This document shows, one piece after another, positions 5,559 through 24,676 of a stretch of DNA of 29,929 nucleotides. Within the stretch, counting starts at the first letter, position 1; each line of letters begins with the position of its first letter. The DNA is from a virus (lineage: Duplodnaviria; Caudoviricetes). The position numbers were made by a program, and so were the translations under genes. The notes beneath the pieces are model-generated. The model saw only the letters and a list, made by a program, of their open reading frames with translations, ran no database searches and had not been told where the DNA came from. Location of the stretch: the IMG/VR virus record IMGVR_UViG_3300017911_000323, positions 1-29,929 of that record. One strand, written 5' to 3'.

Positions 5559-8500
5559 TAAAAGTATCCTGTTCCTAGACTCTGCTCTTCTGCTTCAAGT
5601 CTAAATAAATCATAGTAAACATAGTAAAAGTCAGGATACTTAGTCATAAGCTGGCTAGCAGTATTTCTAAGTATCTTTCTTGCTTCACTAGCTTCTGCTC
5701 TACTAATACTAGCATTTGCACCGTATCTTTGCCTGATTCCTTCTAATAAGAACTGTCTAGTTATTATGTATTGCATAGCACCTTGTATTGCAGGTAAATC
5801 TTTAACAAATGTTTTACTACCATCAGGCATTGTTATTTCTGTATCTTGTTCTGTATTTACAAAGTTTATAAACAATTCAATCTTTGAATTTGTATCTAAT
5901 GATGGTGCAACTGTAGATGTTTGTCCATATCCAGGGAATTGTTTTTGTAACTGTAATCTAAACAAATACAATTGTTCAAACTTTTTATTTAATGGAACTC
6001 TAGTAAACATAGGTCCATCCATAAGCATTCTTCTAAAGTTTTCATATGCTAATGAACCTTGTGCCTGTCTAACAGCTTGTTTATATTGTTCATCAGTTAA
6101 ATCTATTCTATCTCCAGCAGTAAATGCATCTGCCCATGCTTGATAATCAAACTCATCTAATGGAGAATCAGGGAACATATAGTATGCAACATCAGGATGT
6201 TTGTCCATAATCTCTTTATTTTGTTTGTAAAAGTATCCACCTTCTACTGTATATGATGAAGGTCTTATTCTCTTTGACTTAGATGTAAGTAATGCTGTAG
6301 GGTCAAATCCAAACATCTTTATAAACTTACCAGTAGCTTGTATTCTATCTCCTTGGAACTCTGCTAAGAACTGATAGTAAGCATCTGACAATACTGTTTC
6401 TGCAAAGTAATGATGATTAGGGTCTTCATCTTTTATCTTTGTTGGGTCTAAAAACTTACTACCTTCAGGACCAATATTGTATTCGTATTTAGTTACTGGA
6501 CCTGTAGGTGCAATAGCTTGTACAATACCTCTGATTAATAACATTTGACTTGCAGTTTTTCTAGCTCTTTGTAATGACTCTTGTTCTGCAGCAGGAGAAC
6601 TATCATCGTATATTCCTGTAGTCATCATAGCTCTAAGAACACTCTTAACTTCGTTTGCGTATTGTCTATCTAAGTCTTTATCTAAAGAACCACCAGCAGC
6701 TAATATCTTTTTGTACCAGTTAGGTAATGCAGAGTTAACATAAAATCTAGGGTCATACCAATCACCTTCAGGTCTTCCATATGGAAAGAACACATCATCT
6801 ATTGTTTGCCTACTAGGTAACACTGCACTAGCAGGAAGTGAAGCCAAAGGACCAAGACCAGGAACTACTGAACCAGCTACCATGTTTAGTCCACTAGCAT
6901 AACCTTTCATCTTAGCTTTGACAGATGGTGTACCTATGTCAGGTCTCCCAGTTATAGGATTAATTGCTACATCTGATTCATCTGGATTATTTAACATTCT
7001 GTCAACATTAAATCCAAAATCAAAACCTGCCATGTTATACATCTCTTGACCTGTCTGTTCATCTGTAGTAAAGAAACCTTCATCTTCTTCTGTACCAAAT
7101 ACACTAGGCTTTCTAAAAGCTTCTACTGTTCTTTGTAGTTTTCTACCGAATAATGTCTTTTGTGTTTTAAGTAACTTAGTCCATGTACCAGCTATCTCTA
7201 AATAAACTTCTGCGAATGGAAATATTAATCTTAACTGGTCAGCAATTACATGCCTTTTGTTTAGGTCATATAGTAAACCTTTTGTTTCTTGCAATGCATA
7301 TGACTTAGCTAAATCATCTATAGCTCTTAAATCATCTACAGTAATAGCTTTTGTTACATCTGCTTTACCCATAGTTTCTAAATTCTTAATAAACTTACTA
7401 GCTTTAGAACCTGGCAGACTTCTACCCATTACATCTTTAGCTTGTTCTAATATCTTAGCTCTAGCAACATCATCCATATTTGCATATGCACCTTCAATAA
7501 ATCTCCAGTAGAACTGTCTAAATGCTGATGACCTTGATAATTCATTAGTAGGAACACCCATAAGAGTTGCATAGAATGTTTCTATTATCTGGTCAGCTCT
7601 AGCAGCGTAATCTCTGTCTGCTTCAAACCTAGATGCTTTTACTTTAAAACTATCTCCTACAGCATCTGACTTATAGTTATTTAACCAACTTGAATACTTT
7701 CTAAATTCACTTCTTGACATCTTTCTATTGAAAGGTATCTTTTCATACTCTTTACTTTTACTATTAAATATTTCTACAAACTGGTCTGCATCATCTTTGT
7801 AACCAGTAGCAATATGTCTAAGCAACTCATGGTCACCAGTCTTTTCTATTTCATATCTAATTACATTGTTAGGATTTGTAGGTCTAGGTGTTTCTAAATC
7901 TAATGGTATTTTCTTTCCATTAACAACTTCAAAAGCCCTATACTTACCACCTGTCTTTAAATGAACTCTAGCTACTATTGATTCAATATAGCTATCAGAC
8001 CATTTTTTATCTTCCATAATAAGTTTCTTTAATTGCTTAGCATCATCATCACTATTAGCAACTAATGCTTTTCTCCATTGTGACAAGTCACCAGACCAAA
8101 AGTCTTCTTTAATTTTATTGATACTATTTACAAAAGCTTCACTTGTAGGTTCACCAACAATAGTTGCATCAGCAATTCTAGAAGCTAACTCATCACTATG
8201 TAACTGTATAATTTCTGATGACCAAGCGTTATAAAATCCACCTTCACCTTTACCAACAGTCTTAAATCCTCTAGCCCTTCTAGGGTCAAGACCAAACAAT
8301 ATACCAGAGTGAGATTGTGAAGCAGCTTGTTGCCACTCAACAGATATCTCTAATGATTCATCAAGTATATCTTTTTCTCCTCTACCTAAATTCCATGTAT
8401 CTGCTAAGTAGTCATCTCTTAATGCTTCTCTCTCTTTTTGTAAGAACTGTCTGTTTCTTTGTGGTTTTCTACCTATAACCCAAGATAAAGCAGATAGTGG

Positions 8501-15425: not shown

Positions 15426-17336
15426 TTAACTCCAGGGTGTTTCATTCCATTGTATACTATTATAACCTTCAAAGCTAGGAGTGTAGTCGATTCCTATATC
15501 AGCATAAACAAGTTTTGTCAACTGTCTAATAACTTTCATTGGAAACCAACTAGCCATTACAACATCTGATTTATAACCTCTACCACCTTTACCTTTAGAT
15601 GCAAAGTAAACTAACTGTTTTGTATAGGTAATTGACTTTTGTTGTGCATCAGCATCTAAGAATGGTAGTTCTATCATTTCATCGCTAAACATAGGTGCTA
15701 ATGATGTAACACCAAATTTTTCATCCCATTTATTTTTATGAGTTTCGTGTCCTTCTAACTTAATACCTTGAACATTACAATATTCTTTTATTCGTTGGTC
15801 TTGCCTAATAGCTTTTTGAAAACCATTTTCTTCTATTACCCAGTGATAACAATTGTATTTTTCATACCAAGTCTTAATTAATTGAAATGCTTCATCTAAT
15901 CCACCACCATGATGATTTTCCATATCTACCATAGTTAGTTTTATTTCTGAACCTGTTTCTACTGCCCACAAAAATCCTGCTTGATAACCTGTTGCAGCAG
16001 GGTCTAGTCCAGCAACTAAGTAAGAACCTGATGGTATATGTCCTAATGGCATACTAGGTCTGTAACATTTCTCTATTTGTTCAGGATTAAACAATCTTAA
16101 ACTATCACTATGTGCTTTGTTTAAATAAACCATTTCAAAATTCTTAAGACCACCAGTAGTCATAGCATCACGCTTTCTATCCATTAACCATTTGAATGTT
16201 CTTTTACTACCCCACAACATACAATCAACATGTTCTTCTTCTTCAAACTCTGGTTTTACACATAAGCTATCATGTGCTTCTTCTACTATTGTTTCCCATG
16301 CTTCTGATTCTAAAAGAGCAGAATACAAATCATCTGGGTGCTGTCTTGAACCAATCACCAACATAGCTGTATGTTCCTCTTTTCTAGAACCTAAAGTTGT
16401 TGTCCACCAATTCTTAGTATTATTTCTAGATGATGGTTGCATAGTAGAACTGTGGTCTTCAATGTCGTCAGCAATAATTATGTCACAGTCACGAGAAAGT
16501 ATCTTACCACCTCTACCAATACCAATCATTGTAGGAGATTTAATACCTGATACAGTTCGTGTAGATACTGTAAAACCATTTCTAGACCACATCTTTCCTG
16601 CTCTAGTTGCAGGTTTAAAAGAACCATTAGGTCCACAAAAATCTTCTTTTAACTTTTCGTTTTGTTCTAGTGTATCCATAACAGACATAACAGAGTTCAT
16701 AGCAATATCTTCGTTACCACCTACCCACATAATTCTGATATTAGGATTTCTACATATAAGCCAAATAACAAAGTGTATAAGTAATTCTGTCTTACCATGT
16801 CGAGGTGGACTTAATATCATTTGCTGACCACCATTAAGTAAAGCTTTATTAATACCTTTTATCCATCTGTTGTGAAAGTCTGCTGTCTCAAAAGGTACTC
16901 CCTGTTCTGTAAGAAAGTATCTATCTCTAAATTCTGTAAAGTCTTCTAATGATTGCAAAGCATCAGTAGATACTTCCCATTCAGCAACTTCCTTATCTTT
17001 TCTAGCATCTTCTTCAAAAGCACCAAGTAATCTAGATATGTGTGCTGGTGTACATTTAAGCTCCTCAGCTATTTGATTTCTATTTAATCTGCCTTGTATT
17101 AAGTCCATGGCGTAACCTTCATTAACAAACTTGTCGTATAAAGCACCTCTACGAACTTGCGTTACTTTACCTTTGTTAACTTCTTTTATCTCTGGTTGGT
17201 ACTCTCTGCCTTTTTCTTTATATCTAGCTTTGCGTTTAGACTCTCTGTAATAACAAGTTTTACCACAGTATTTAGTTTTTCCAGGCGGTAAAAGGTTTTC
17301 GCATTCAGGTGCAATGCAAATTACATTCTTTACCAT
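15426..17336 (-). CDS. terL: Terminase large subunit with N-terminal Zn-finger/HTH extension
   Basis: Walker A PPRHGKT, Walker B IIIADD, nuclease motifs AGLDPA and SDVVMA. Confidence 0.93.
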   Translation of the reverse strand: MVKNVICIAPECENLLPPGKTKYCGKTCYYRESKRKARYKEKGREYQPEIKEVNKGKVTQVRRGALYDKFVNEGYAMDLIQGRLNRNQIAEELKCTPAHISRLLGAFEEDARKDKEVAEWEVSTDALQSLEDFTEFRDRYFLTEQGVPFETADFHNRWIKGINKALLNGGQQMILSPPRHGKTELLIHFVIWLICRNPNIRIMWVGGNEDIAMNSVMSVMDTLEQNEKLKEDFCGPNGSFKPATRAGKMWSRNGFTVSTRTVSGIKSPTMIGIGRGGKILSRDCDIIIADDIEDHSSTMQPSSRNNTKNWWTTTLGSRKEEHTAMLVIGSRQHPDDLYSALLESEAWETIVEEAHDSLCVKPEFEEEEHVDCMLWGSKRTFKWLMDRKRDAMTTGGLKNFEMVYLNKAHSDSLRLFNPEQIEKCYRPSMPLGHIPSGSYLVAGLDPAATGYQAGFLWAVETGSEIKLTMVDMENHHGGGLDEAFQLIKTWYEKYNCYHWVIEENGFQKAIRQDQRIKEYCNVQGIKLEGHETHKNKWDEKFGVTSLAPMFSDEMIELPFLDADAQQKSITYTKQLVYFASKGKGGRGYKSDVVMASWFPMKVIRQLTKLVYADIGIDYTPSFEGYNSIQWNETPWS

Positions 17337-18446: not shown

Positions 18447-18459
18447 TCTATGTATTATA
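18447..18459 (-). promoter_or_regulatory. -10 box TATAAT for probable leaderless mRNA
   Basis: TATAAT (18459-18454) + 7 nt + ATG, no RBS. Confidence 0.45.
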
Positions 18460-18979
18460 GTTTATCTAACAAATGGTAGCTAACATTAAACTCACCACAT
18501 ACTCCAGTGTTTATAAGGTCTTCAATAGGTACTATCAATGAGCGTGAAAAAAAATTTTTATTTTGAGCATCTACAATTCTGTATTCTTTGTTTATTACCC
18601 AGTCCATGATATAAGGAATTAACCTATCTGGATTCCAGTAAAGGACACGACTAGTTGGATATACCCAGTACATGAGAAAGTCAGGGAATGTTTTTAATGC
18701 ACATCCTATACGCTTGTCTGTATCCCCATACACTACTTGTATTTCTAATGCTACATTCCCTGTCTCCTCTGCTCTAGTGTCGGTTTTTACTTCGACATAC
18801 CTAGTGCCTAATTCTTGATTCATAATAAAGAAATCTGCACCTTTTAGTTGTTCTTCTTTAAATGCATCTCTAACTATATATTTTCTTTTACCTTCATCTG
18901 TCTGTTGTGATTCGTAGTAAGACTTAATTAGTTTCTCACCTTTCTTACCAACTTCTAGTTGTTCATCAAAATCAAACAT
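18455..18979 (-). CDS. PD-(D/E)XK restriction-endonuclease-fold protein
   Basis: GKKGE...GADF...VEVKTD...TGNVALE motif arrangement. Confidence 0.7.
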   Translation of the reverse strand: MFDFDEQLEVGKKGEKLIKSYYESQQTDEGKRKYIVRDAFKEEQLKGADFFIMNQELGTRYVEVKTDTRAEETGNVALEIQVVYGDTDKRIGCALKTFPDFLMYWVYPTSRVLYWNPDRLIPYIMDWVINKEYRIVDAQNKNFFSRSLIVPIEDLINTGVCGEFNVSYHLLDKL

Positions 18980-19274
18980 TTGGATTCTCTACTTCATACA
19001 TAGTGTAGGTTACTGTTAGTTCCTCACCAGCTTCTATAGGTCTAATTGTCCATAAAAACTTATGTCCTTCTAATTCACTTAACTTACAGTTAGGTTTGTC
19101 ACTATGATTAATAAAACCACCTAATGGTGTTCTAATTATTCTTGTACCTAATATTACATGCGTATTACCTAGGTTCGTATCTGAACCTATATGCATCATT
19201 GTAAATAAACCTAATCCATCTAAGTCACTAGGTTTAATTGTTAATCCCAATGGTAGGGGTCTATAAGTTGCCAT
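18972..19274 (-). CDS. Minimal SET-domain protein-lysine methyltransferase
   Basis: DGLGLF, FINHSDKPNC and IEAGEELTVTY SET motifs; AAGGAAGG RBS. Confidence 0.92.
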   Translation of the reverse strand: MATYRPLPLGLTIKPSDLDGLGLFTMMHIGSDTNLGNTHVILGTRIIRTPLGGFINHSDKPNCKLSELEGHKFLWTIRPIEAGEELTVTYTMYEVENPNV

Positions 19275-19425
19275 TATTACCTTCCTTTAACTTGTTATAT
19301 ATTTAGTATAGTACTATAGTTATTTTAACAGGCATCATTAACTACCTGCTCTAGGAAATAGTTTTTGAGAACAGGCGAACTTATAAAGTGGACTAGCAGG
19401 ACCATGGTAACTAGCGTTAGAGGCT

Positions 19426-19461
19426 ATTACTTCACATATTTATTTATAGGTCAAGTCGAAC
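19426..19461 (-). promoter_or_regulatory. Leftward copy of conserved element GTTYGACTTGACCTAT-N14-AGTAAT
   Basis: Inverted twin of 20108-20143; TTGACC-N17-AGTAAT spacing identical in both. Confidence 0.55.
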
Positions 19462-19605
19462 AAACATTATTGTCACTAAACTTATTTACTGGCTGGGAGG
19501 GAGTGACACAGGGCTCGCTGTACGCAAAACACACTCCAATCGTACTATAAAGAAAAGTATCTAAAATACTTTCTCTTTACTGTAAGAGTGTGCTAAAATA
19601 GGACA

Positions 19606-19689
19606 ATAGGAACGGTGGTGTAGATTAATTATCTATACCTTCCTTGATAATCACAAACGCCTGGCTACACCACCTACCTAAATCTTTTT
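19606..19689 (+). ncRNA. Candidate stand-alone small RNA with anti-SD loop
   Basis: Extended -10 TGC-TAAAAT (19591-99); stem ggtggtgtag/ctacaccacc; inner hairpin exposing tataccttcctt; T-tract downstream. Confidence 0.55.
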
Positions 19690-19983
19690 GTCCAACAATT
19701 ACCAGCAATTTTTCTAGGTGTTACATAATGATATACCCCACCCACCATGTTAAAACCCCCTATACGCACGGTGCAAACACGACACGCAATACTATACTAT
19801 TTCTTTATTTACAACTGCAATACAACGCAATCATTTGTAGACAAATGTACCGCATGTACTGTATAACTACTACTTAATCTAAACACCCTAGTAGCCTACA
19901 TTGATATCTCAATTGTTCACATGTCACTCATATGTTTCAATGGGGAACACTTATCATAACACATGGTAAATTCAAATTCCTAA

Positions 19984-20143: not shown

Positions 20144-20165
20144 TTAGTCGAGAGAAAGGAATAAC

Positions 20166-20960
20166 ATGACTAATGAACAAATAACCAATCTACTTAATCA
20201 AAGTGGATTAGAAGTATCCAATGTAACAAGTAAGTCCAAGAGTGACACACAACCTACTCAAGATATACTAGAACAGTTATCCATTGAGAAAGGACTTACT
20301 CTACAATCTAGCGTAAGTAAATCAAAAAAGACTTGGCTAGGTCGTAAGACAAAAGCGAATGCTAAGTTCAACAACCAGATTGTAGCAGTTACATTTACCT
20401 ACAAGAGAGTGCTTGGTAGCGAAGTTGGCGATACCGAAGGTGCAGAGAAAAATCGCTTTGCGCTTTACATCGACAACAAGTTCTACACTGGCGTATACTT
20501 TAAGCAACTTAGTGCTGTGAAACAGTTTGAGTTCATGCTTAAGTATAACCAAGAACTTCTTACCGATGATGCATTCTCTGCATATCACATTGGTAGCGAC
20601 TGGAAGTTGCCTACTCAATTTCTCAATGACCTTGGGAAAAACAAATGTTTGGCTTGGACTTCCAGTCATGGTGTACCAGTCATGGTGCCAACCATATTCC
20701 AATGCCAAAATTACGACAACACAAACGATATGAATGGTACACCATTCTCACGACCTAATAAAATTATGTCCAAGAATGATGCAGGCTTATCTGCTATCCA
20801 GATTGGTCAAGTCTACCAAAGTAATATCCCAGTGATGTCACCAGATAGATGGACTTCCATTACGAAGTCTATGCACGCTGGTACTACACCTTCTGTATCA
20901 CCAGATGAACAGGCATTTATCAAATACTATATGGAACTTGTTTCCAAAGTAAAAGCCTAA
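20166..20960 (+). CDS. Hypothetical protein (264 aa), monocistronic first plus-strand gene
   Basis: Strong RBS AGAAAGGA and its own terminator. Confidence 0.85.
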   Translation: MTNEQITNLLNQSGLEVSNVTSKSKSDTQPTQDILEQLSIEKGLTLQSSVSKSKKTWLGRKTKANAKFNNQIVAVTFTYKRVLGSEVGDTEGAEKNRFALYIDNKFYTGVYFKQLSAVKQFEFMLKYNQELLTDDAFSAYHIGSDWKLPTQFLNDLGKNKCLAWTSSHGVPVMVPTIFQCQNYDNTNDMNGTPFSRPNKIMSKNDAGLSAIQIGQVYQSNIPVMSPDRWTSITKSMHAGTTPSVSPDEQAFIKYYMELVSKVKA

Positions 20961-20967
20961 CCACACT

Positions 20968-21003
20968 AAAAACTCGGTACGCGTTGCGTACCGAGTTTTT
21001 TTT
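20968..21003 (+). terminator. Intrinsic (possibly bidirectional) terminator
   Basis: aaaaactcggtacgc-gtt-gcgtaccgagtttttttt. Confidence 0.93.
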
Positions 21004-21344
21004 ATGATGAGAACTAAATTAATTACAAAAAAATATACGCAATTCGTTTGCCCAATCAACACCATAGTCTGCTCTACTACACGAACTTATATTCTTAATT
21101 ACTATGTCATAGAATATAAATACTAAACACACACAACATTACAGAAAAAAAAATCTACAATAACACACATCAATAAGAATCATCTTTATGACATGTTATG
21201 TTAAAGTCTGTCAAATTTTATTTAATCATGAAAGAAATCTTGAAGGCACTGATAAAGAAAATGCTAAAGTTTTTTTATAAATTATTTTTATTTTCTTATT
21301 ACATTTTTCGTGTATGTATGCATGAGAGGAAGGAGCTAACAAAT

Positions 21345-21743
21345 ATGAAAAAGTATAGAGTATCAAATCCCCCAAGTCCTAGCCTTGCTAGTACAGGTGA
21401 GTATGTGTTACCAAGCGACAGAATACAGGGTACACAAGACTGTATATTCTGTGGCAGTTTGACAATGTCATACCGAAGGGTATGCAACAAATGTAAATGG
21501 TCTGTGTCACCTGAGCGTTTGGAAATACTCCAACGCAAACGACAAGGTCAGATAGAAGCAATGCAACAAGAACGCATTGACAAAGCTAACAAAGAGTATT
21601 CATTTGCGAGTGATAAGGTAGAGCTAGTTGATACCAGAGAAGAACGCGTATGCAGTCTGTGTTATCTGTTCTCATTCAATATGAAACAAACCTTCATGTG
21701 TTTCAGAACAGAAGTAAACATATGCACAGATTGTAAAAGATAA
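21345..21743 (+). CDS. Double Zn-finger-like protein (132 aa, start MKKYRV)
   Basis: GGAAGGAG RBS before ATG 21345; CxxC pairs CIFC/CNKC and CSLC/CTDC. Confidence 0.75.
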   Translation: MKKYRVSNPPSPSLASTGEYVLPSDRIQGTQDCIFCGSLTMSYRRVCNKCKWSVSPERLEILQRKRQGQIEAMQQERIDKANKEYSFASDKVELVDTREERVCSLCYLFSFNMKQTFMCFRTEVNICTDCKR

Positions 21744-22008
21744 GCTACTACTCCGACACGATACATCTAGACATGTGTCTCCTTTCTCATTGTCGGAGTG
21801 TAGCTAGAAGTACATGGGTGGTATTTCACACATACCACATTACACATACCACAAGCCACCTGTGTACTTCTAGCTATTCACATGAGTAAAAGCAGTTTCC
21901 CCTGTCTGTGCATTGAAAGTGTGAGTAGCGTGAAGTCTATGTGTGTACATATTAACTAATACATAACATATCTACTACAACATGTAGGCTTCACGCTACG
22001 CCAGTAGC
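21743..22008 (+). ncRNA. Array of four interlocked stem-loops (plus a terminal mini-hairpin); candidate multi-sRNA precursor
   Basis: Stems of 15, 22, 11 and 20 bp; loops 32, 32, 35 and 35 nt; TAGC/GCTA junctions shared; all 8 non-WC pairs are G-U. Confidence 0.75.
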
Positions 22009-22021
22009 AGAGAGGATATAT

Positions 22022-22180
22022 ATGGATATAGTTTGCGATAACTGTAGACAAGGCAAGATGGTCGTGACAGGAACATATGCCAATGTCAAATCATCTGTAC
22101 TCAATATGGTCAAGTGTTTCACCTGTGGGTATGGAAGTGTAAGAAAAGAAAACAACAAGAGGAGGTTACACAGTGAGTGA
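22022..22180 (+). CDS. 52-aa Zn-ribbon protein MDIVCDNC...CFTCG
   Basis: AGAGGA RBS, two CxxC; below ORF-track cutoff. Confidence 0.75.
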   Translation: MDIVCDNCRQGKMVVTGTYANVKSSVLNMVKCFTCGYGSVRKENNKRRLHSE

Positions 22181-23441: not shown

Positions 23442-23945
23442 ATGAGTGAATACAAATACTCTGGCATAGAAGGACATGAAGAAGATATGCGACATGCCAC
23501 TATGCAAAAGAATAGTTGTGCTATCACAAAAGATATATTGAAATATCTAAACAACTTATCTATTCAATATGGATACAACAGGCAACTGATTGATACCATA
23601 TTCGAGTCAAGAGATACAGTTGATGATGATAGCTTGACAGATGTGATTGATGAAAGGTTTCCATGTTTCATGACAATGGCAATGCCTCATTATCACAAAC
23701 AAGGTAAGAAAACAGACATGCATTACAGAACTGCATGGGCTTGTATTTTCGTAGGCAACCAAACAAAGCCTGTAACATTGATGGTAGACATACCAGCTAC
23801 AGCATTTGAATTGTTGCCAGATGTTCCCCAGATAAAATATCTGAAAGCCGATGAATGGAAAGAATGGTGGGAACAAGAGAAAGAACAAATGACAAAAGAC
23901 TTTATCGACTCAGTCGAATATTGGTCTAACGAGAAAGGAAGGTAA
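23442..23945 (+). CDS. Hypothetical protein (167 aa)
   Basis: RBS and operon context. Confidence 0.8.
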   Translation: MSEYKYSGIEGHEEDMRHATMQKNSCAITKDILKYLNNLSIQYGYNRQLIDTIFESRDTVDDDSLTDVIDERFPCFMTMAMPHYHKQGKKTDMHYRTAWACIFVGNQTKPVTLMVDIPATAFELLPDVPQIKYLKADEWKEWWEQEKEQMTKDFIDSVEYWSNEKGR

Positions 23946-23947
23946 TC

Positions 23948-24676
23948 ATGGATTGCTGGGATTTATTATCCAAAGTACTACCTGCGACACCAAGAGTTTT
24001 ACTCTATGGTCCTCCAGGTACAGGAAAAACTTATATTGCGAACACAGAAGGGTTGAGAGAAAATCAAGATGTTTTCCAAACAACGCTTACACAGGACAGC
24101 ACTGCTGCCGAATTGTTAGGACACTATGTACCAAATGAAAGTGGTGCATTTGAATGGCTTGATGGTCTTGGTATCAAGGCATGGAAGCAAGGCTCAAGAC
24201 TTGTTATCAACGAGATTGATAACGCTGGTGTTGATGTAATGACATTCTTACATGCGTTGCTTGATGACCCCAAGTTTGCGAAGTTTACTTTGCCGAACAA
24301 AACAAAAGAAGTTGTAAGACCTGCTAATGGTTTTCAAGTAGTTGCAACTATGAATGGTACACCAGATGACTTGCCAGAAGCATTGGCTGATAGGTTTCCT
24401 GTGAAACTTAATATGGACAAAGTCAATCCGAAAGCCATTGAGTTGCTACCAAACAACTTGCGTGGTGCATACAACGACTACACAAATGCAAACTCTGTGT
24501 TCTCTGTTCGTAAATGGATTGCGTTTGCAGAACTAATGGACGCTGATATTCCTGTAGATGAAGCAGCGTTGGCAGTATTTCAAGAGAATGCAGATGAACT
24601 AGTGAATGCATTGGCTATACAAGATAGCGATGACATTCCTGAAGTAGAAGATACAGATGAAGAAAGTGATGAGTGA
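23948..24676 (+). CDS. MoxR/CbbQ-type (AAA_5, CobS-like) AAA+ ATPase
   Basis: GPPGTGKT, LVINEID, VATMN, ALADRF. Confidence 0.92.
   Translation: MDCWDLLSKVLPATPRVLLYGPPGTGKTYIANTEGLRENQDVFQTTLTQDSTAAELLGHYVPNESGAFEWLDGLGIKAWKQGSRLVINEIDNAGVDVMTFLHALLDDPKFAKFTLPNKTKEVVRPANGFQVVATMNGTPDDLPEALADRFPVKLNMDKVNPKAIELLPNNLRGAYNDYTNANSVFSVRKWIAFAELMDADIPVDEAALAVFQENADELVNALAIQDSDDIPEVEDTDEESDE

Follow-up and report, generated by a model that had tools for sequence, protein, structure and literature searches.

The DNA stretch analysed here (the window, 29,929 nt, corresponding to a 29.9-kb virus record) was found to carry a predicted small RNA, designated RNA2, between a leftward and a rightward gene block that diverge from each other. 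Judged by covariation in related phages, RNA2 is a real, clade-wide structured RNA element, and it is probably a stand-alone trans-acting antisense RNA that would block translation of the first gene of the late operon. Its conserved target is, by complementarity that co-varies between phages, the leader at the head of the leftward late operon, whatever gene comes first there. RNA2 is thus predicted to be a likely translational brake on this operon, which would hold late protein synthesis until the right time.

The leftward operon contains, in this order, a SET-domain gene, a gene for a 174-aa protein, small genes, the terminase large subunit (TerL) gene and then large virion genes. The rightward block starts at 20166 and includes genes for an AAA ATPase, an exonuclease and one further protein, followed by leftward holin and amidase genes. 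The genes of main concern were the following:

15426..17336, - strand: terminase large subunit gene (phrog_38, E 7.8e-59), in the same tightly packed operon as the SET gene
18455..18979, - strand: 174-aa gene, the first late gene in most relatives (gene list, leader comparison)
18972..19274, - strand: SET-domain gene (PF00856), which opens the late operon in the window
23948-24676, + strand: AAA ATPase gene (AAA_5, PF07728)

The SET gene overlaps the start of the 174-aa gene by 8 nt, from which we infer translational coupling of the two. The 174-aa protein has a D...EVK motif that we take, as a lead only, to resemble that of PD-(D/E)xK nucleases; a search for a relative in PDB found none, and its Atlas clusters are unnamed, with PF13020 as the rank-20 hit on 18% of members. 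The major head protein is encoded downstream in the same leftward block in one complete relative. Tyrosine integrase (PF00589) and resolvase (PF00239) domains were found in none of the four relatives rated complete (44.6-61.9 kb), and the phages of the RNA2 clade are apparently lytic. No repressor, sigma factor or RNA polymerase was named among the 30 proteins of the window and 48 selected proteins of two relatives, most of which are without family.

The phages of the clade are uncultured and for the most part marine, and the host is likely a marine actinobacterium. Several relatives are contigs whose names come from marine surveys, and one relative is a contig in an Actinomycetota metagenome-assembled genome (MAG), an assignment by binning that is not proof of host. 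The 58-kb contig C30 of the Actinomycetota MAG G001 is a phage genome (about 42 kb) in which about 16 kb are repeated; a block of repeated genes and not host flanking DNA is seen on it, and further related terminase genes are present on contig C36 of the same MAG. A 16S search of the MAG holding a relative gave no match. Comparison with GenBank phages showed no DNA relative of the intergenic region beyond AT-rich fragments of 20-45 nt, and the nearest GenBank phage terminases, from Streptomyces phages, were only 24-30% identical. Three Actinomarinales phage sequences are described in PMC7771536.

RNA2 and its counterparts in related phages

The elements of RNA2 and the sites complementary to its loop are located as follows:

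19591..19599, + strand: extended -10 box TG-C-TAAAAT (TG 19591-92, TAAAAT 19594-99), with the transcript start predicted at about 19605-19607
19606..19690, + strand: RNA2, a predicted small RNA of about 70-90 nt with an uncertain 3' end (fold, alignments), one copy in the window
19607-10/19677-80, + strand: outer base pairs TAGG/CCTA (sequence)
19614-23/19665-74, + strand: closing stem, in which GGTGGTGTAG pairs with CTACACCACC
19628-33/19646-51, + strand: inner stem ATTATC/GATAAT presenting the loop (sequence, alignment)
19634-45, + strand: loop TATACCTTCCTT (sequence)
19636..19645, + strand: seed 1 TACCTTCCTT, antisense to the first late leader, with a predicted unpaired probability of 0.99 (L036 row, identical to the window sequence)
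19658..19663, + strand: seed 2 CGCCTG with CCTG core, complementary to the 5' part of an upstream element, RNA1 (alignment)
19685-89, + strand: five T (sequence)
19278..19287, - strand: target 1, AAGGAAGGTA, in the Shine-Dalgarno region of the first leftward late gene, exact complement of seed 1
23935..23944, + strand: second exact complement, in the Shine-Dalgarno region of the AAA ATPase gene, lineage-limited

The extended -10 box, the stems, the loop and the T run, which were named in a preliminary description of this DNA, were all confirmed in the sequence at the positions listed above. The region 19591-19700 folds into the RNA2 structure at -28.2 kcal/mol (z -4.38), and none of 200 shuffled sequences was as stable. 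A scan for consensus promoters and terminators, which requires a -35 box and a T-run at most 2 nt from the stem, detected neither signal at RNA2. The RNA2 locus had no match in Rfam (the four window matches at E<=1 are elsewhere and all under the gathering score), no Rfam family, including c4 (RF01695), was matched in 16 related loci, and ARAGORN found no tRNA or tmRNA genes in the window. An alternative 5' hairpin, GGTGTAGAT/ATCTATACC, that would hide part of seed 1 was 2-5 kcal/mol less stable than the rod in all 17 type A sequences (see below) and was not adopted; it showed one compensatory change, in L175. Immediately ahead of the RNA2 promoter an AT-rich hairpin (19549-19582) is present that recurs with changed sequence in all types and is a possible terminator of RNA1.

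Related loci were gathered from viral and metagenome contigs by searching for proteins and patterns, and RNA2 counterparts were located in them by the extended -10 pattern, giving 181 partly redundant loci that represent 48 distinct sequences. In these 48 the TGnTAwnRT box is situated 277-316 nt from the first late start codon; since the box was the search anchor, its invariant letters are invariant by construction. Five loci with enough DNA were missed by the anchor (L089, L091, L235, L236 and L237), of which L089 and L091 carry a variant RNA2 (type F) and L235 and L236 are differently organised. The interior of RNA2 divided the 48 sequences into types A (17), B (7), C1 (5), C2 (6), D (9) and E (4).

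The 12-bp closing stem of types B-D was paired in 264/264 cells of 22 sequences, with 7 of the 12 pairs changed on both sides. Forty-four of its cells are G-U, which would be A-C mismatches if the opposite strand were folded, and the + strand is therefore taken to be the folding strand. GCAA/GCGA tetraloop hairpins are also found on the + strand in types B-D. In type A, 97.5% of the closing-stem cells were paired, with only one-sided G-U changes, and the inner stem showed changes on both sides at four of six pairs; only 62.5% of its cells were paired, partly because the A2 rows are shifted by one column. Behind the stem, a U-tract is present in 26/27 type B-D, 6/17 type A and 0/4 type E sequences. 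The T-tract that had been placed after the hairpin is present in the window but lies about 10 nt past the core stem, and because of this distance and its presence in 6/17 type A sequences only, the length of 84 nt proposed for the RNA is uncertain.

A covariance model of type A (R1) found a single locus in the window, besides the reverse strand of the same locus, and nothing among the type B-F loci or L242 that it was given; the types are thus linked by position, promoter, architecture and CCTG core, and not by a model hit. Type A comprises one TerL clade plus L175 (FastTree, midpoint-rooted). In the corresponding tree of the 174-aa protein (FastTree, midpoint-rooted), the window group nests among types B/D, yet it keeps a type A leader.

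The same features could be read at the DNA level. The matches would then be a protein-binding or promoter motif repeated in inverted orientation around a region for control, replication or packaging, and the hairpin would function as a terminator or simply as DNA. GTTACAGG is indeed inverted on both sides of the divergent promoter in types B-D, and the region is placed between divergent operons and upstream of TerL; the records of related Streptomyces podoviruses start at such a place, with TerL about 0.7-1.1 kb into the record. However, the covariation tolerates G-U and is strand-asymmetric, the GNRA loops are on the + strand, tandem CCTGTAAC copies are variably spaced (7-12 nt) and the differences between seeds and leaders are of the wobble type, and a DNA-level role is considered very unlikely. 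When genome ends were looked for near RNA2, contig ends were seen there without a sharp pile-up. A conserved AATTACCAGCAAT block is located at 19697-19790, followed by C/G runs, CCCCACCC...GTTAAAACCCCC, which could be a packaging or end signal.

Complementarity of seed 1 to the first late leader

The 10-mer of the RNA2 loop is, as reported in the preliminary description, exactly complementary to sites upstream of both the SET and the AAA ATPase genes, each ending 3 nt before the ATG. A genome-wide count bore this out: AAGGAAGGTA occurs in the window three times versus 0.07 expected, namely in the loop itself (19636-45, - strand) and in exactly two other copies, at 19278-87 (- strand) and 23935-44 (+ strand), and none of 100 shuffles reached at least three copies. 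The SET and AAA leaders were the top two (tied) of 31 leaders in the window. RNA2 (19606-19690) does not overlap its target at 19278-87, the late transcript probably starting near 19298.

The comparison of relatives upheld the leader of the first late gene as a target but not the SET gene as such, which comes first in only 2/48 distinct sequences; in 45/48 this place is taken by the 174-aa gene (the first ORF of L175 not being among these). Seed and leader were found to differ together between types. In type A, the seed TACCTTCCTT or TACCTTCTT faces AAGGAAGG-like leaders, AAGGAAGG(TA), and in types B and D the seed CCTGTAACTT faces the leader AAGTTACAGG. The type C2 seed CCTGTAAGTAAC can form 12 bp, one of them G-U, with the leader GTTATTTACAGG, and the type C1 seed CCTGTAATGTAAC 13 bp with a 2-nt bulge with the leader GTTACAATTTACAGG. 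Mismatches between seed and leader were often G-U wobbles, as read from the alignments of L002, L187, A2, C2 and L110.

Mean pairing energies of type A RNAs were -11.2 with leaders of their own class versus -7.9 to -8.6 with others, and the own-class means of C1 and C2 were -16.0 and -15.7. Several B and D RNAs fitted C1 leaders better than their own (mean -13.5 versus -12.6), and type E RNAs favoured none of their own. Permutation of seeds against leaders, from which L175 was left out, gave 0/50000 for 20 sequences, p=0.00035 for one sequence per type (8), p=0.008 for five classes and p=0.04 for four classes. With gene starts called by a simple script, the own first late leader ranked among the top three of 19-35 predicted leaders in 13/17 loci and at 4, 5, 7 and 12 in the remaining ones; the weaker ranks included L135/L072 (7 of 22), L080 (5 of 27) and type E (12 of 31). 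In addition, when each leader was shuffled 40 times, 43 of the 48 RNAs scored better with their own leader than with at least 38 of the shuffled versions; the failing ones were L015 (3/40) and all four of type E, which is without a leader match (4/4).

The motifs matched in the leaders were not found to be common ones. TTACAGG was present in 23/31 first-late leaders versus 0/699 other leaders of B-E phages, and AAGGAAGG in 6/10 first-late versus 4/229 other leaders of A1/A3 phages and in 0/730 B-E leaders, which shows that neither is a background Shine-Dalgarno form in the clade. The type A seed is nevertheless, by its letters, largely anti-Shine-Dalgarno, so that part of its match would be generic. 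Furthermore, the leader, RNA1 and RNA2 are all located within about 400 bp and are passed on together, and type A consists of a single TerL clade plus L175; the number of independent co-changes is therefore about 4-5 and not 48. Taken as a whole, the idea of a trans-acting antisense RNA put forward earlier gains from the covariation of the structure and the co-variation of seed and leader, with the RNA itself being a prediction and its list of targets in need of correction. An exposed predicted seed that is complementary to the translation-initiation region and co-varies with it was found, with type E, L089 and L091 as exceptions.

The RNAs of L089 and L091, which were held out, have a merged seed. 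Their anti-Shine-Dalgarno match to the own leader was -10.5 and -12.9, with a small matching change between the two, and they fitted B/D leaders far better (up to -22.9 and -18.3, L121 excepted), matching most of them over 12-13 nt. This would favour a target outside the phage itself, with RNA2 acting either as a generic anti-Shine-Dalgarno RNA against host mRNAs or as a weapon against late leaders of co-infecting related phages. The type A loop, which we take to resemble the 3' end of 16S rRNA, would count for the same reading. On the other side, the B-D seeds are not anti-Shine-Dalgarno, and the A, C1 and C2 RNAs were best on their own leader class, hence the phage would silence itself too; we give an outward target little credence compared with the phage's own late leader.

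The preliminary description would make the SET and AAA ATPase genes both specific, co-regulated targets, and as a check it named co-variation of the loop and the two ribosome-binding sites among relatives. For the late leader this co-variation was found, as it switches together with the seed. For the AAA ATPase gene the exact site is present in the window, L001 and L002 and a partial one in L187, i.e., the match is limited to three of the five closest lineages, and the AAA leaders of L067, A1b, A2, A3 and B-D that were listed do not match their own seed. The three AAA matches are from close relatives and represent about one event, and AAA was among the top three leaders in 2/16 loci only. In favour of the proposal, besides the two exact 10-mers and their top ranks in the window, a start-associated AAGGAAGG was found 13 times in 17 type A loci (seven of them at rightward genes) and never in 31 B-E loci, so that AAA may have been added to the targets only recently. 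In the sub-lineage of the window this may apply to a few rightward genes, the AAA ATPase gene among them. A genuine additional role of AAA as a target in this lineage is a tentative possibility, and it is compatible with the late leader as the conserved target.

RNA1, seed 2 and the proposed mode of action

Seed 2, RNA1 and a hairpin array (next section) are elements that were not included in the preliminary description. The features of RNA1 are as follows:

19326..19445, + strand: RNA1, upstream structured element with stems 19335-44/19359-68, 19388-91/19402-05 and 19412-15/19423-26
19345-50/19395-400, + strand: RNA1 loop-loop (kissing) helix of 6 bp (alignment of 8 sequences)
19329-33 and 19372-77, + strand: RNA1 sites CAGGC and CAGGCG, complementary to seed 2 (sequence)
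19310-05, - strand, and 19315-20, + strand: overlapping divergent -10-like hexamers TATACT and TATAGT, the putative promoters of the late mRNA and of RNA1 (sequence, alignments)

In eight sequences, type A RNA1 showed 24 pairs with 98.4% of cells paired and 13 pairs changed on both sides, which was reached by 0/500 shuffles. RNA1 had no match in Rfam, and the topologies of hammerhead, HDV-like, twister and pistol ribozymes were not fitted by eye. RNA1 could act as a sponge or as a ribozyme, or it could be an RNA of the packaging type. The non-A types and L175 have a different, highly conserved RNA1 (e.g., L015:4855-4935, approximately) with helices that cross and co-vary, as seen by eye: GGTAA/TTACC, GCTGAC/GTCAGT with an invariant G-U, GGG/CCC and CGGAC/GTCCG. 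L175 and L239 are mosaics that combine a type A RNA2 with a non-A RNA1, and their seed 2 is altered to fit their own RNA1, with which, judged by eye, it can form 11 bp and one bulge. In a distant relative (TerL 51%), L242:4518-4835 on contig C36 of MAG G001, an RNA1-like stretch and the TTACCAGC block are kept and no obvious RNA2 is seen; CCCTGTT units like those of the array are found near 7627-7944 of the same locus. RNA1 and the array may thus be older than RNA2.

The complement of seed 2 is on the + strand just past the divergent promoter, at the start of RNA1. The CCTG core of seed 2 was invariant in 17/17 type A sequences and CCTGTAAC in 22/22 B-D rows. It could therefore be argued that RNA1 is the main partner of RNA2 via this seed, as a regulator, as the second half of a two-piece RNA or as part of one long transcript, with the leader match being secondary. 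CCTG also persists in types E and F, whose leader lacks a complement while RNA1 keeps GTTACAGGTA, and the flanks co-vary (ATGCCTGT/ACAGGCAT in type A versus ACCTGTAAC/GTTACAGGT in non-A types). The RNAs beat shuffles in 37/48 cases, in a test that is circular as the RNA1 window was centred on the motif. However, seed 2 and RNA1 can form only 5-6 bp in the window, compared with 9-13 bp in A1b/A2 and B-D relatives, type A RNAs showed no own-class preference (-9.5 versus -9.7 to -10.0), and the seed-1 changes of C1, C2 and A that follow the leader are left unexplained. RNA1 as main partner is accordingly judged unlikely, and the late leader is preferred as the principal target.

For RNA2 acting on the late leader, the following course is proposed. 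The host RNA polymerase would start RNA2 from the extended -10 box soon after infection, and the + strand would fold into a closed rod with single-stranded seeds, as supported by covariation. Seed 1 would then form 8-13 bp with the late leader, at or beside the Shine-Dalgarno sequence, as suggested by their complementarity and co-variation. With the first gene blocked, leaky late transcripts would be silenced, and translational coupling or polarity would carry the block to the genes behind, so that a threshold for late expression would be set. The block would lift once late mRNA outnumbers RNA2. Release may be helped by RNA1, which would come from the overlapping opposite promoter with its complement to seed 2; this last step is speculative and rather doubtful.

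The c4 antisense RNA controls an antirepressor in temperate-phage immunity. It is known from phages P1/P7 and is represented by Rfam family RF01695 (PMC2864571). RNA2 is, by prediction, like c4 a small structured phage RNA that acts in trans on the phage's own mRNA via short single-stranded segments, with two seeds for two sites; unlike c4, it has no Rfam match and its target is the first leader of the late operon, with no temperate context. The CI RNA of satellite phage P4 pairs with the upstream same-strand seqA, is processed from a primary transcript and terminates transcription in lysogeny, as given in PMC4825925. By comparison, seed 2 could likewise pair with the upstream same-strand RNA1, whereas RNA2 has a promoter-like box of its own, and the target that co-varies best with it is an opposite-strand ribosome-binding site. 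The two single-stranded seeds with separate sites that characterize c4 and CI are found in RNA2 by prediction only, seed 2 being weak in the window; a temperate phage with an antirepressor or replication-leader target is not what was found here, since the co-varying target is the late leader.

The phage RNAs sar, OOP, aQ, PAK_P4as15 and STnc6030 overlap their targets on the opposite strand. Unlike sar, OOP and aQ, RNA2 is encoded about 320 nt from its target without overlap and matches it over 8-13 nt only. P22 sar, lambda OOP, aQ, PAK_P4as15 and BTP1 STnc6030 are presented in a section of PMC12197685 as antisense RNAs by which phages dampen genes of their own, and of these aQ indirectly delays late genes and PAK_P4as15 is proposed to delay lysis. 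The phage antisense RNAs in that section mostly serve lysogeny or superinfection exclusion, and RNA2 would instead aim at the entry of the packaging and capsid operon. For the Vibrio cholerae satellite PLE, a trans-acting sRNA with separate seeds, SviR, is described (10.1101/2022.04.08.487710), which reduces the translation of what is putatively a structural protein of a phage. Trans action through separate seeds is also predicted for RNA2; SviR is, as far as described there, a weapon of the satellite against another phage, in contrast to RNA2, whose seed follows the phage's own leader.

No description of the RNA2 family was found in the main texts of the open-access PMC/bioRxiv literature. 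RNA2 is a family without an Rfam model and a member of none of the c4, CI and SviR families, to which it is similar in its predicted mode of operation. Natural matched variants of seed and leader are provided by types A, B/D, C1 and C2.

The hairpin array and neighbouring features

Downstream of the 264-aa gene of the window a strong, bidirectional-looking terminator hairpin is present (20957-21011). It is followed by a Cys-rich gene (21198-21743), for which an ATG near 21345 with the Shine-Dalgarno sequence GAGGAAGGAG is the likely start. The leaders of its homologues scored high with RNA2 (L161, L135, L170) and with seeds of the hairpin array, which comprises:

21749..21999, + strand: array of three closed hairpins (fold), at about 21749-21800, 21800-21877 and 21925-21999

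Long closed hairpins, often back to back, were found upstream of the 52-aa gene (at 22022 in the window) in all 22 loci examined. The array hairpins and RNA2 have in common that a seed is presented by a closed stem. In the window, array hairpin 1 has a seed that is complementary to 20152-20172, the leader of the gene that opens the rightward block, and the own early leader ranked 1 of 18. Many array hairpins hold CCTTT seeds that fit their own early leaders, these seeds having been picked by pattern. When array seeds were compared with leaders across loci, the own leader ranked first in 4/18, and the diagonal was favoured (p=0.00012).

A circuit can be pictured in which the whole infection is timed by RNA: RNA2 would shut the late operon, RNA1, with its kissing loop or pseudoknot and transcribed from the other face of the late promoter, would soak up RNA2 and so free the operon, the array would shut early genes, and the seeds would be swapped and re-matched as modules. 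This wider scheme is unlikely as it stands. If RNA1 and the array did belong to the same circuit as RNA2, this would explain how a small phage without a recognisable regulator among the proteins scanned orders its expression.

Stem repeats common to the array hairpins, GTAGGTAGCTTG...CAAGCTATCTAT, enclose variable payloads (e.g., in L165, L154 and L147), and a CCCTGT...GAAAGT unit is also recurrent. The block GGGAGGGAGTGACACAGGG (19475-19530) is nearly invariant in type A, and its ACAGGG is complementary to the CCCTGT unit of the array (21899-21905). The GCAA hairpin of type C1 RNA2 was found to recur in the array of L048.
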